DNA from: Acidimicrobiales bacterium
GTDB taxonomy: Bacteria; Actinomycetota; Acidimicrobiia; Acidimicrobiales; JACCXE01
Direction: 5' to 3'
Length of the DNA stretch: 40,828 nt
NCBI GenBank assembly: GCA_046594835.1
Contig: JBKJQZ010000165.1
Coordinates: forward strand, 1 to 40,828
The notes under the pieces were generated by a model, which saw nothing but the letters and a program-made list of their open reading frames with translations, was not told the DNA's origin and did no database searches. Below, in pieces: positions 25,509 to 35,124 of the stretch (position 1 is its first letter; every line of letters starts with the position of its first letter). The position numbers and the translations under genes are program-made.

Positions 25509-26689
25509 CCGCTACTGAAACCGTCTCCGAGTGGCAGAAGTCGGCCTACATCGCCGGCCAAGCCGCCGACGCGCGCGTGCACCTCGAGCTCGAGACCGAG
25601 GGCATGACCCTCAACATCGGCCCGCAGCACCCTGCCACCCACGGCACGCTGCGCATCGTCGTGCGCCTCGATGGCGAGCAGGTTCTTTGGGCCGATCCCG
25701 TTCCCGGCTACATGCACCGCGGCTACGAGAAGCTGTGTGAGGTTCGCAAGTACCCGCAGGTCACCACGCTCATCAACCGCATCGACTGGCTGGGCAGTTT
25801 CGCCAACGAAGTGCCGTTCATTCTGGCGGCCGAGCAGCTCATGGGTATCGAAGCCCCCGAGCGGGCGCAGTACATCCGCACCATTCTGTTCGAGCTCGCA
25901 CGCATCGCGAACATCGCGTTGTTCCTCGGTGACATGGGTGTGCAGCTCGGTGCCGTTACGCCGGTCTTCTACGCGTTCCGCGACCGCGAGCGCGTGCTCA
26001 ACCTGATCGAGTCCGCCACCGGTGGTCGGTTCCACCCGAACTTCGACCGCGTCGGGGGCCTCAAGGACGACCTGCCCAAGGGTTGGCTCGCCGAGGTCAA
26101 GGACGTAATGATCCGGGTGCGGAGCTTCTGCGACGAGATGGAAGATCTTCTCGTTGGCAACGAGATCTTCCAGACCCGTTGCCGCGGCATCGGCGTCATC
26201 CCGGCTGCCGTCGCCCTCGATTACGGCCTGAGCGGCGCGAACCTGCGCGCCTCGGGCGTCGACTGGGATCTGCGACGCGACGACACGTCGATCGCAATGG
26301 CGTGGAAGCACGCGGACTTCAAGGTCTGGACCCACCCCGACGGCGACAGCTTCGCCCGCTACTGGGTGCGCCTGCAGGAGACGCGTGAGGCGACGAAGAT
26401 CGTCGACCAACTCTGCGACAGCCTGCCCAGCGGCCCGATCATGACCAAGGTCCCGCGCATCATCAAGGTGCCCGAGGGCGAGGCCTATGTGCAGACCGAA
26501 AACCCTCTCGGTGTGATGGGTTACTACGTCGTGTCCAAGGGCGACCTGGGCCCGTTCCGGGTCAAGATCCGCAGCGCGAGCTTCAACAACATTTCGGTCG
26601 CGTCGTGGGTGCTGCGCGGTGTGTACGTGCCCGACGTCATCACGATCCTCGCCTCGTTGTACTTCATCCTCGGGGACATCGACCGCTAG
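25505..26689 (+). CDS. nuoD: NADH-quinone oxidoreductase subunit D (copy 2, divergent)
   Basis: NIGPQHPATHGTLR, GYMHRGYEK, ENPLG, C-terminal GDIDR; no NiFe-binding CxxC pairs. Confidence 0.95.
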   Translation: MTATETVSEWQKSAYIAGQAADARVHLELETEGMTLNIGPQHPATHGTLRIVVRLDGEQVLWADPVPGYMHRGYEKLCEVRKYPQVTTLINRIDWLGSFANEVPFILAAEQLMGIEAPERAQYIRTILFELARIANIALFLGDMGVQLGAVTPVFYAFRDRERVLNLIESATGGRFHPNFDRVGGLKDDLPKGWLAEVKDVMIRVRSFCDEMEDLLVGNEIFQTRCRGIGVIPAAVALDYGLSGANLRASGVDWDLRRDDTSIAMAWKHADFKVWTHPDGDSFARYWVRLQETREATKIVDQLCDSLPSGPIMTKVPRIIKVPEGEAYVQTENPLGVMGYYVVSKGDLGPFRVKIRSASFNNISVASWVLRGVYVPDVITILASLYFILGDIDR

Positions 26690-27709
26690 ATGGACCTGCT
26701 CGCGTTTTCGTATCCGGCTGAGACCGCCATCAAGATCGGCGCCGTCTTCGGCGTCATTCCTGTGGGCGCGCTCGTGTTTACCTACGTGTTCCTCTTCAAG
26801 ATGATGAGCCACATGCAGAGCCGACTCGGGCCGATGGAAGCGGGTCCGCACGGCGTATTGCAGCCCATCGTCGAGATGCTCAAGTTCCTGCAAAAGGAAG
26901 ACATCGTTCCGGCCAAGGCCGACCGTCTGGTGTTCAAGCTGGCACCGTTCGTGGTGCTGAGTTCGACGTTCCTGCTCTACGTCGTACTGCCCGCTGGGCC
27001 CGGACTCGTCATCGAAGACCTCAACACGGGCGTGTTCTTCGCGATGGCCGTTTCGTCGCTGTCGGTCATCGGCATCCTGATGGCGGGCTGGGCCTCGGCC
27101 AACAAGTACGCCCTCATCGGAGGCCTTCGCTCGGCCGGTCAGCTCATCGCCTACGAACTCCCGATGATCCTTGCGGTGGTCGGTGTGGTCATCCAGGCCG
27201 GGAGTCTCAGCCTGCAAGACATCGTGCATGCGCAGGCCGACGGCGCGATCTTCGGTATCGGCGCCATCGGTAACCCCTTCGTGCTGACGCAGTTCGTTGG
27301 GTTCGCAATATTCCTCATCGCCGCGCAGGCCGAGCTCACCCAGACGCCGTTCGATATGCCGGTCGCCGAATCCGAGCTGGTGGCGGGCTACATGACCGAG
27401 TACACCGGCGTGCGCTTCCTCCTCTTCTTCATCGGCGAGTTCGCAACCGCCTTCGCCTTCAGCGCGCTGGCCGCCACGCTGTTCCTCGGCGGCTGGTACA
27501 TCCCGGGCGTCCACGGCACGCTCGCCAACGTGCTCGGGCCGCTCGCGCTGGGCGGCAAGATCATGTTCCTGGGCTTCTTGATTTTCTGGGTCCGCTTCAG
27601 CTACCCACGTTTGCGTGAGGATCAGCTGCAGCGCATCGCGTGGAAAGCGCTCATCCCGCTGTCGCTGCTCAACATCGTGGTGACGGCAATTCTGAAGGTG
27701 GTCCTGTAA
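26690..27709 (+). CDS. nuoH: NADH-quinone oxidoreductase subunit H (copy 2)
   Basis: [46 protein letters not shown]. Confidence 0.95.
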
Positions 27710-28194
27710 TGGCCCGCATCTTCGACGCCTACTTCAAGGGTCTCGGCGTCACGTTCAAGACGATGACGAAAAAGACCGTCACCGTGCAGTACCCGCACGA
27801 AAAAGAAGCGCCCACTGCGCGAGCCCGCGGCGTCATTGCGATGCTCGAGGAGAACTGCACCGTTTGCATGCTCTGCGTGCGTGAGTGCCCCGACTGGTGC
27901 ATCTATATCGAGGGCCACAACGACCTCGCCCCGCCGCGCCGCGAAGGCGGCAAGCCGCGTAAAGCCAACGTTCTTGATCGCTTCGATATCGACTACTCGC
28001 TTTGCATGTACTGCGGCATCTGCGTCGAGGTGTGCCCGTTCGACGCGCTGTTCTGGAGCCCCGAGTACGAGTACAGCGAGGTCAACATCGCCGACCTCCT
28101 GCACGACAAGAGCCGCCTTGCCGACTGGGTGCAGACCGTGCCCGAAGCGCCGGGCCTTGAAGCGGGCGCGCAGGCGAAGAAGGGGGCGAAGTAG
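27709..28194 (+). CDS. nuoI: NADH-quinone oxidoreductase subunit I (copy 2)
   Basis: [17 protein letters not shown] and [12 protein letters not shown]. Start ATG 27709 (TAATG overlap). Confidence 0.95.
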
Positions 28195-34197: not shown

Positions 34198-34212
34198 ACG
34201 GGCACCGGCGCG

Positions 34213-35124
34213 ATGAGTGCGCCCGTACCCTTCGACGAGTTCATGCACGCGGCCCTGTACGGGTCCGAGGGCTTTTACGCGACGGGTCGCGGCGCAGGCC
34301 GACACCGCGACTTCATCACGAGTCCGGAGATCGGTCCGCTGTTTGGTGCCGTTGTCGCGCACGCCCTCGACGAGTGGTGGGACGAACTCGGCCACCCCGA
34401 CCCCTTCGTCGTGATCGAAGCTGCCGCCGGGACCGGCGCGCTCGAACGCAGCGTCGTTGCCGCAGCCCCGCGGTGCGCCGCATCCCTCCGCTACGTGCCG
34501 GTCGAGTTCGCCGATCCGTGGCCCGAAGGCGGCGAAGTTGGCGTGATCATCGCCAACGAACTGCTGGACAACCTCGCCTTCAAGATCGTCGAACGCACCA
34601 AAGACGCGTGGGTCGAAGTGCTCGTCGAGGGCGACGCGTTCGCGCTCGGCGCGCCGGTCGCGGGGTTTGATCACGTCGACGCGCCGGTCGGCTCACGTCT
34701 TCCGTGGCACACCACTGGAATCGACTGGCTGGCGCGGGCTCACGCAACCTTTACCCGCGGCCGCATCGTGCTCGTCGACTACGGCACCCCGACCGCGCAG
34801 GAACTCGTCGGGCGTCAGTGGCTGCGGACCTACCAGCAACACGGCCGCGGCTTCGACCCGCTCCGTGCACCCGGCGAGCAAGACATCACCACGGACGTCG
34901 CGTTCGACCAACTGGTCCCAGACCGTCTGGTGACCCAGGCGGACTGGTTGCGAGCGCACGGCATCGACGCACTTGTTGACGTAGCCCGCGCCACGTGGCA
35001 CGCACGGGCGGCGATCGGTGACCTTGCTGCGTTGAAGGCCCGCAGTCGCGTCAACGAAGCCGACGCGCTCCTCGACCCCGGCGGTCCCGGCGGCTTCCTC
35101 GTCGCCGAATGGGATCTGTCCTAA
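34213..35124 (+). CDS. SAM-dependent methyltransferase, MidA/NDUFAF7 (DUF185) family
   Basis: [30 protein letters not shown] motif, [28 protein letters not shown]. Confidence 0.88.

Follow-up and report, generated by a model that had tools for sequence, protein, structure and literature searches.

The window analysed here, the whole of a 40,828-nucleotide (nt) contig (C244) from the 3.24-Mb, 350-contig assembly of an Acidimicrobiales bacterium, contains two sets of nuo genes for respiratory complex I, the second of which is followed by a gene for a putative methyltransferase of the MidA/NDUFAF7 family. The closest public relatives of the assembly are Acidimicrobiales/Acidimicrobiia metagenome-assembled genomes (MAGs). 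According to Pfam searches with all 11 open reading frames (ORFs), set 2 (23936-34197) consists of nuoA, B, C, D, H, I, J, K, L, M, and N and lacks nuoE, F, and G, which are confined to the first set; a first-pass annotation of this DNA had called the second operon headless. The genes of this operon, the two genes behind it, and the NuoB and NuoD genes of the 14-gene set that were used for comparison are as follows (E, expect value).

23936..24301, + strand, nuoA2, opening the EFG-less operon (PF00507, E 2.3e-37)
24181..24807, + strand, nuoB2, likely start 24292 (PF01058)
24804..25508, + strand, nuoC2 (PF00329, E 8.9e-31)
25505..26689, + strand, nuoD2, encoding the proposed substrate (PF00346, E 1.7e-76)
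26690..27709, + strand, nuoH2 (PF00146, E 7.3e-101)
27640..28194, + strand, nuoI2, longest ORF, of which the true start may be later (4Fe-4S ferredoxin domains)
28194..28685, + strand, nuoJ2 (PF00499)
28469..28984, + strand, nuoK2, longest ORF, with a match to PF00420 confined to residues 78-170, which puts the true start probably near 28700
28988..31156, + strand, nuoL2 (PF00361, PF00662)
31153..32676, + strand, nuoM2 (PF00361, PF01059)
32680..34197, + strand, nuoN2 (PF00361), with a TAA stop at 34195-34197
34213..35124, + strand, MidA/NDUFAF7-family methyltransferase gene, 303 amino acids (aa) (PF02636)
35109..37100, + strand, acetyl-CoA synthetase gene, acs (ACAS_N, AMP-binding, AMP-binding_C)
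5003..6340, + strand, nuoD1 of the 14-gene set, comparison NuoD
3790..4563, + strand, nuoB1, likely start 4033, comparison NuoB

The stop codon of nuoN2 and the ATG of the methyltransferase gene (34213) are separated by 15 nt, the spacing given in the first-pass annotation, and the methyltransferase would be made together with the subunits of a second, NuoEFG-less complex I of 11 subunits. A promoter and terminator scan of positions 23200-40828, which is too weak to serve as evidence, returned no promoter-like site (2.7 expected) and 21 terminator-like sites against 11.8 expected, none of them on the + strand at 33861-38581. Public sequencing runs searched for this stretch yielded four soil-metagenome DNA runs and no RNA run.

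The family assignment, for which a hidden Markov model comparison had been proposed, was borne out by a match to PF02636 (Methyltransf_28) with an E value of 6.3e-26 and 91.8 bits (cut-off, 23.3 bits), and no other PF02636 gene was found in the whole assembly. A search with the single sequence retrieved 4f3n and 1zkd, both COG1565 structures, as well as Dictyostelium MidA (5ztz), to all of which the N-terminal DF.TSPE region also aligns, and a profile of 21 homologues matched the same three PDB entries with E values of 1.4e-37, 1.5e-25, and 1.1e-22, respectively. The AlphaFold2 (AF2) model of the protein has a predicted local distance difference test score (pLDDT) of 90.6 and a predicted template modelling score (pTM) of 0.88. 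In Foldseek, the top six chains were all MidA-type (4f3n/4g67/5ztz/5zu0/1zkd), with query TM-scores (TMq) of 0.74-0.80 (4f3n, E 6.1e-21 and TMq 0.76; 1zkd, 0.74-0.75; the MidA entries 5ztz/5zu0, 0.78-0.80, including 0.80 for 5zu0_A), and those of all other methyltransferases did not exceed 0.36. Many homologues are annotated by the Joint Genome Institute as 'SAM-dependent MidA family methyltransferase', SAM standing for S-adenosylmethionine; NCBIfam holds no model for the family. The family and the fold are thus established, and the gene appears to encode a compact, SAM-dependent protein arginine methyltransferase of the MidA/NDUFAF7 type, with a catalytic activity predicted from these matches and the model.

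Only two NuoD genes, nuoD1 and nuoD2, are present in the whole assembly. Reading of the ORFs placed Arg72 of NuoD2 (CGC, 25718-25720, codon 72) within the motif GYMHRGYEK and Thr100 of NuoD1 (ACC, 5300-5302, codon 100) within GYLHTGMEK, exactly as previously annotated, so that within this genome the arginine occurs in NuoD2 only. In an alignment that is free of gaps over the 102 N-terminal residues, GYMHRGYEK coincides with GLLHRGTEK of mitochondrial NDUFS2 and with GYLHTGFEK of Thermus Nqo4. An intersubunit switch has been described at this place by Hameedi et al. 2021 (PMC8042128): Thermus Nqo4 has a threonine, and Arg83 of Nqo6 fills the same space, the situation being reversed in Yarrowia. 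The two NuoB proteins of the window differ in the same manner. Arg155 of NuoB1 (numbered on the long ORF; codon 4252-4254) corresponds to Arg83 of Thermus Nqo6 in an ungapped alignment to 2fug_6, and the same position is occupied in NuoB2 by Thr110 (codon 24508-24510), as in the mitochondrial sequence VAGTLTNKMAP; a threonine was also read in 26/26 further nuoB2 stretches in which the pattern matched. NuoB2 keeps the CC...C...CP cysteines that bind the iron-sulphur cluster N2, and its best PDB matches are NDUFS7 chains from mitochondria; NuoB1 is matched best by Mycobacterium and Thermus proteins. Around cluster N2, as judged from these alignments, nuo set 1 is therefore Thermus-type and nuo set 2 mitochondrial-type, and the reciprocal NuoB1-Arg/NuoB2-Thr swap shows, in line with the earlier proposal, that Arg72 is the counterpart of the arginine beside N2 on which NDUFAF7 acts in mitochondria.

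NuoD2 differs from NuoD1 also at the quinone site. Trp95 (codon 25787-25789) stands at the place of the quinone-ligating tyrosine (Tyr87 of Thermus Nqo4), which NuoD1 keeps as Tyr123 (5369-5371), and the loop histidine, His46, is kept. The tryptophan was found in 51/51 proteins of the NuoD2 clade defined below, whether encoded inside or outside the operon, and in 41/41 of the public loci reaching nuoD2, and the tyrosine in 8/8 NuoD1 proteins read and in 16/16 single NuoDs of small genomes. The replacement points to an altered quinone site in the 11-subunit enzyme.

The linkage of the methyltransferase gene to the nuo genes was examined in 40 relatives from the order and in public MAGs. The gene was found in 33 of the 40 relatives, from which 29 methyltransferase loci were returned, and in all 29 the end of a co-directional nuoN gene lies at most 400 nt upstream. 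Among the best 80 public loci, all from Acidimicrobiia-type MAGs, nuoN2 lies within this distance in 69 and 1.3-9.6 kb upstream in seven more; four have no nuoN upstream, three of which possess less than 75 nt of upstream DNA. The linkage exceeds chance, and the synteny expected from the first-pass annotation is thereby established. At one locus (L014, genome G032), the methyltransferase gene is situated between two operons, i.e. between nuoA2B2C2 and a nuoN that is 36% identical to NuoN2 and is probably nuoN1.

Co-occurrence in the order follows NuoD2. An orthologue of NuoD2 is present in 32 of the 33 methyltransferase-positive relatives, the exception being a 59% complete genome that still contains nuoN2 followed by the methyltransferase gene, and none was found in the seven methyltransferase-negative relatives, where the best matches are NuoD1-type proteins with 38-42% identity (one of these genomes lacks any NuoD). 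All NuoD2 orthologue stretches read HRG (33/33), as do the 41/41 public loci reaching nuoD2, with HRGY, and the 35 NuoD1-type stretches comprise 33 with HTG, one with HSG, and one that is unreadable. Four further NuoD-like matches (L103-L106, from G028, G038, G024, and G015, respectively) are 27-29% identical to NuoD2, one of them reading HRGIEK, and are probably large subunits of group-4 hydrogenase-like enzymes.

Outside the order, the pairing narrows to nuoD2 itself. Of 20 methyltransferase-centred loci fetched there, one belongs to the same class and shows the full string of nuo set 2, methyltransferase gene, acs, and a haloacid dehalogenase (HAD) phosphatase gene. The other 19 come from outside the class, and in 10 of them a NuoD2-type gene, unaccompanied by further nuo genes, is found at most a few kb from the methyltransferase gene, its product being 46-52% identical to NuoD2 and reading GYMHRGAEK or GYMHRAAEK (in one case Tyr-type); in the stretches fetched for the remaining nine, no NuoD2-type gene was found. 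The flanks of these pairs vary, with a two-component system in one case and Crp and SelA in another. Overall, 38 genomes of at least 10 families (37 genomes when one unpublished genome is left out) carry both genes on the same contig at a distance of less than 8 kb, mostly less than 3 kb.

The methyltransferase-adjacent nuoD genes were initially taken for extra orphan copies, an interpretation that was revised when the nuo2 operons of G094, G217, and G202 were found to lack nuoD2. Among five pair-bearing genomes in which the nuo2 operon was located, three have the order A2-B2-C2-H2-I2-J2-K2-L2-M2-N2-M48 without nuoD2 (in one of them, C2 and H2 are 156 nt apart), and the operons of the other two are rearranged or reduced. 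In G136, the operon has shrunk to A2-B2-C2-I2-M48 and the nuoD2-methyltransferase pair is retained; family f46 may possess a third NuoD copy. In a quick maximum-likelihood tree of NuoD, 51 of the 76 rows form a NuoD2 clade (Shimodaira-Hasegawa-like approximate likelihood ratio test, SH-aLRT, 100), in which the relocated genes are nested next to in-operon genes with Phe two residues after the arginine; one sequence on a very long branch (L068), probably read in the wrong frame, was kept in the outgroup. The relocated genes strengthen the proposed link to NuoD2 in particular: that nuoD2, where it lies outside the operon, adjoins the methyltransferase gene is the strongest evidence obtained here for NuoD2, rather than the whole operon, as the probable partner of the enzyme.

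At the level of the phylum, 301 Actinomycetota genomes of at least 90% completeness were compared. A PF02636 gene was found in 101 of them (92/290 when 11 genomes flagged as unpublished are left out) and a NuoD homologue (E 1e-30 or better) in 264. By hand comparison of the tables, NuoD is present in all 101 methyltransferase-positive genomes, and the methyltransferase was detected in none of the 37 NuoD-less genomes; the arginine is kept in every NuoD read, these being from 86 of the 101. The exact DNA-level pattern GYMHRGxEK occurs in 92 of the 301 genomes (reversed control, 0), and the hits were crossed by hand with the PF02636 results, shared ancestry being uncorrected. The methyltransferase gene was present in 42/42 genomes with x = Tyr (36/36 without unpublished genomes), 19/19 with Ala (19/19), 2/2 with Lys (1/1), 3/3 with His (2/2), and 1/1 with Pro (1/1), and in 3/25 with Phe (3/24). 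More generally, genomes that lack the gene tend to have Phe at the second position after the arginine (HRGF, HRAF, or HRSF), and those that possess it Tyr, Ala, Lys, or His, again with ancestry uncorrected; family f48 is Phe-type, yet the gene is found in 7 of its 11 genomes.

Taken together, the most likely job of the methyltransferase, to which we assign a probability of about 0.6, is methylation of NuoD2 at Arg72, in the HRGxE motif next to cluster N2. The modification would probably be a symmetric dimethylation, as in mitochondria and Paracoccus, and would take place before or during the docking of NuoD2 onto NuoB2; it might affect the assembly of the complex or the potential of N2. NuoD1, with its threonine at the same position, cannot serve as a substrate, NuoB1 supplying the equivalent arginine in the 14-subunit enzyme. 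A prediction of the complex between NuoD2 and the methyltransferase, with an alignment as input for each protein, gave no answer (score 0.00) and speaks neither for nor against binding.

Several observations weigh against this reading, the first group of which concerns the protein itself. The Pfam match covers profile positions 79-233 only. About 58 columns (116-173 of alignment A1), equivalent to one helix-strand unit, are missing between the YV.VE and ANELLDN strands, and the AF2 model shows no strand at the deleted segment. In motif I (E69-A-A71-A-G73-T-G75), Ala71 replaces the first glycine, which is kept in at least 90% of the 21 homologues. The helix-strand loss and Ala71 weaken the certainty of activity, and the compact enzyme could be impaired. 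Taken further, these features and the length of 303 aa, compared with 320-400 aa in other Acidimicrobiia, might mean that the methyltransferase of this genus is a decaying or inactive relic carried in the operon. We regard this as highly improbable: the reading frame is intact, the AF2 model is confident, and the deletion, which also occurs in the genus-level relatives, is common to at least seven homologues that are 59-75% identical (P0005, P0007, P0016, P0024, P0043, P0045, and P0048), pointing to conservation after the deletion. The lost strand would presumably have formed the edge of the sheet in the usual class I methyltransferase topology, which we also count against a relic.

The second group concerns distribution. 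No PF02636 gene was found in 22 of the 25 GYMHRGFEK-type genomes, and the arginine is kept in 20 further methyltransferase-negative genomes read (HRA, HRS, HRG, or HRC). Moreover, 11 loci of methyltransferase-negative genomes carry an EFG-less set with an Arg-type NuoD2 (ten hold the full A2-N2 set, and L246, on a cut contig, A2-I2 only), which implies that the complex can do without the enzyme. The earlier suggestion that the gene tracks HRG-type NuoD and headless operons therefore holds in one direction only: the enzyme occurs only with an Arg-type NuoD, and a simple tracking of the arginine is rejected by Arg-type NuoD in at least 42 methyltransferase-negative genomes. The arginine is the common state, necessary but not sufficient for the presence of the enzyme, and caution is needed in taking the arginine alone as a sign of methylation. 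Also in this group, the two genes co-occur without being linked in the other orders of the class and in a large family outside it (f39), and many relocated pairs are convergent and hence not co-transcribed.

Parts of both groups of observations would be accommodated if the protein were a NuoD2-specific assembly factor with an essential role in binding and chaperoning, methylation being absent, partial, or directed elsewhere, either to a different residue or to a different subunit (NuoB2, for example). Gene linkage implicates NuoD2 and is silent on chemistry, one helix-strand unit and a motif-I glycine are gone, and many lineages with an Arg-type NuoD2 have no enzyme. Nevertheless, the other motifs of the SAM fold are strongly conserved over the 21 homologues (DF.TSPE.GPLFG, G73, G75, ANELLDN, and DYG being invariant or almost so), and family members of known function are active arginine methyltransferases (PMC3829151), so that we consider this alternative unlikely.

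A different kind of objection comes from Wolbachia, the MidA of which has been reported to methylate DNA when expressed in Escherichia coli; according to the same source (PMC12455994), the function of the prokaryotic family has been inferred in silico only. The substrate could thus lie outside complex I (DNA, acetyl-CoA synthetase, or another protein), with the place after nuoN2 representing an inherited gene order, and the downstream acs gene indeed abuts or overlaps the methyltransferase gene. However, adjacency to acs (12/29 relatives' loci and 25 of the best 80 public loci) is much below adjacency to nuoN2 (29/29 and 69 of the best 80), the gene follows nuoD2 out of the operon into otherwise different neighbourhoods, and it was detected in none of the 37 NuoD-less genomes of the phylum sample. 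A substrate outside complex I is therefore very unlikely in our view, and methylation of NuoD2 Arg72 remains the preferred reading.

The closest counterpart is the mitochondrial system, in which NDUFAF7 was identified as the methylating enzyme (Rhein et al. 2013, PMC3829151). Human NDUFAF7, which acts on Arg85 of NDUFS2, and Dictyostelium MidA (5ztz and 5zu0) share with the present case the Pfam family, the fold, and the homologous HRGxE arginine by N2, and mitochondrial NDUFS7 has a threonine at the switch position, like NuoB2. The mitochondrial enzyme is nuclear-encoded, about 400 aa long, and serves an NADH-oxidising complex with 14 core subunits, whereas here the gene stands behind the 11 nuo genes of a NuoEFG-less operon, and its product, of predicted activity, has 303 aa and lacks one helix-strand unit. 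Unlike in mitochondria, the cell would contain two paralogous complexes, of which the enzyme would serve one, and its putative partner NuoD2, unlike that of NDUFAF7/MidA, has Trp for the quinone-ligating Tyr. With respect to the switch (PMC8042128), NuoD1-Thr with NuoB1-Arg corresponds to the Thermus state and NuoD2-Arg with NuoB2-Thr to the mitochondrial state; the published switch contrasts two organisms, whereas here both states are found in one genome and the methyltransferase is linked to the mitochondrial type only.

A bacterial precedent is provided by the Alphaproteobacteria, with MidA homologues (1zkd) and, in Nqo4 of Paracoccus denitrificans, symmetric dimethylation of the corresponding arginine. 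Carroll et al. 2013 (PMC3750175) reported symmetric dimethyl-arginine in the bovine, human, Pichia, and Paracoccus enzymes, the residue being Arg65 of Nqo4 in Paracoccus; the arginine of E. coli NuoCD is unmodified, and Thermus has a threonine there. The alphaproteobacterial enzyme-substrate link has been inferred only (PMC9006661, PMC12455994), and no operon linkage is reported in the passages of these papers that deal with it; the present case differs in its linkage, its phylum, and its headless complex. Among 14 control genomes, a PF02636 gene was found in Caulobacter and not in E. coli, so that the unmodified NuoCD arginine coincides with absence of the gene; this fits the Paracoccus/E. 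coli precedent and parallels the enzyme-less Arg-type Actinomycetota. Synechococcus and Haloferax were likewise positive for PF02636 among the controls.

The arrangement of the genes is not new, contrary to the first-pass annotation, which knew of no description in Actinomycetota. A 2021 preprint by Bulzu et al. (10.1101/2021.02.01.429150) describes in Ca. Actinomarinales, of the same class, an 11-subunit nuo operon followed by genes for NDUFAF7 (K18164/PF02636), htpX, and pspE. The arrangement is the same and a 14-subunit set lies nearby, with htpX there and an M48/HtpX gene downstream here. In the preprint, these genes belong to the context of heliorhodopsin and are called 'accessory assembly components'; its passages on them contain nothing on which arginine is targeted, on specificity for one paralogue, on the NuoB swap, on distribution in the phylum, or on relocated pairs. 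Apart from this preprint, our literature search, which covered main texts, found no paper linking NDUFAF7 with 11-subunit nuo, nuoN, or Acidimicrobiia, and a search on arginine methylation of NdhH or NDH-1 gave nothing relevant. New here are the reciprocal NuoB swap in one genome, the conserved linkage to nuoN2, the relocated nuoD2 pairs, and the co-occurrence with NuoD only. The earlier interpretation is, in sum, well supported by the comparative evidence and was overstated with regard to newness and to the tracking of the arginine. Within the MidA/NDUFAF7 family, the gene is best regarded as a new and compact member that is encoded in an operon and would serve the NuoEFG-less complex I of Acidimicrobiia.

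Human complex I assembly needs the NDUFAF7-dependent dimethylation of the N2-adjacent arginine, where the methyl groups may influence either assembly or the properties of cluster N2, and experiments have yet to demonstrate a substrate for any bacterial MidA (PMC8042128, PMC12455994). The present genome contains both solutions for the arginine beside N2, namely a Thr-NuoD/Arg-NuoB operon without a methyltransferase gene and an Arg-NuoD/Thr-NuoB operon closed by one. Related actinomycetes that keep the gene beside a relocated nuoD2 include large-genome forms that are likely cultivable and would permit knockout, mass spectrometry, and electron paramagnetic resonance tests that are hard in mitochondria. 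A bolder reading treats NuoD2 and the MidA-type methyltransferase as a two-gene module of the Actinomycetota, ancient and semi-autonomous, in which the methyltransferase would go with NuoD2 and not with the remainder of the complex, methylation would license the insertion of a Trp-type quinone-module subunit with a rebuilt quinone site into an NADH-independent 11-subunit complex, and repeated loss of the enzyme would go with a change two residues after the arginine (from Tyr, Ala, Lys, or His to Phe). We hold this to be rather unlikely; if true, the methyl mark would be a tunable switch of N2 and quinone-site properties, and a step that has to date been studied in mitochondria alone would gain a genetic model in bacteria.

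The start of acs deserves a comment. The first ATG (35109) gives a 16-nt overlap with the methyltransferase gene, and a second in-frame ATG (35139) is preceded by AAGG and is the more likely start, relatives aligning from residue 7-17 onward. The remaining features of the window are as follows.

3-2686, + strand, cytochrome bc-type genes
3557-6340, + strand, nuo set 1, nuoA-D
10976-23274, + strand, nuo set 1, nuoE-N
between nuo set 1 and nuo set 2, minus strand, VanZ gene
after acs, + strand, HAD phosphatase gene
38542-39399, + strand, M48 (HtpX-like) peptidase gene, 4.3 kb downstream of nuoN2 in the window
after the M48 gene, + strand, M23 peptidase gene

Between nuoD1 and nuoE1 (6351-10935), the 14-gene set is interrupted by a PD40 beta-propeller gene on the minus strand and by four genes for an ABC transporter of the glycine-betaine type. 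A gene with a PF00685 sulfotransferase domain (37606-38505, E 4.7e-40) belongs to the same co-directional string and follows acs and the HAD phosphatase gene. In many Actinomycetota, an M48 (HtpX-like) gene is located close behind nuoN2, often with an M23 peptidase gene next to it.

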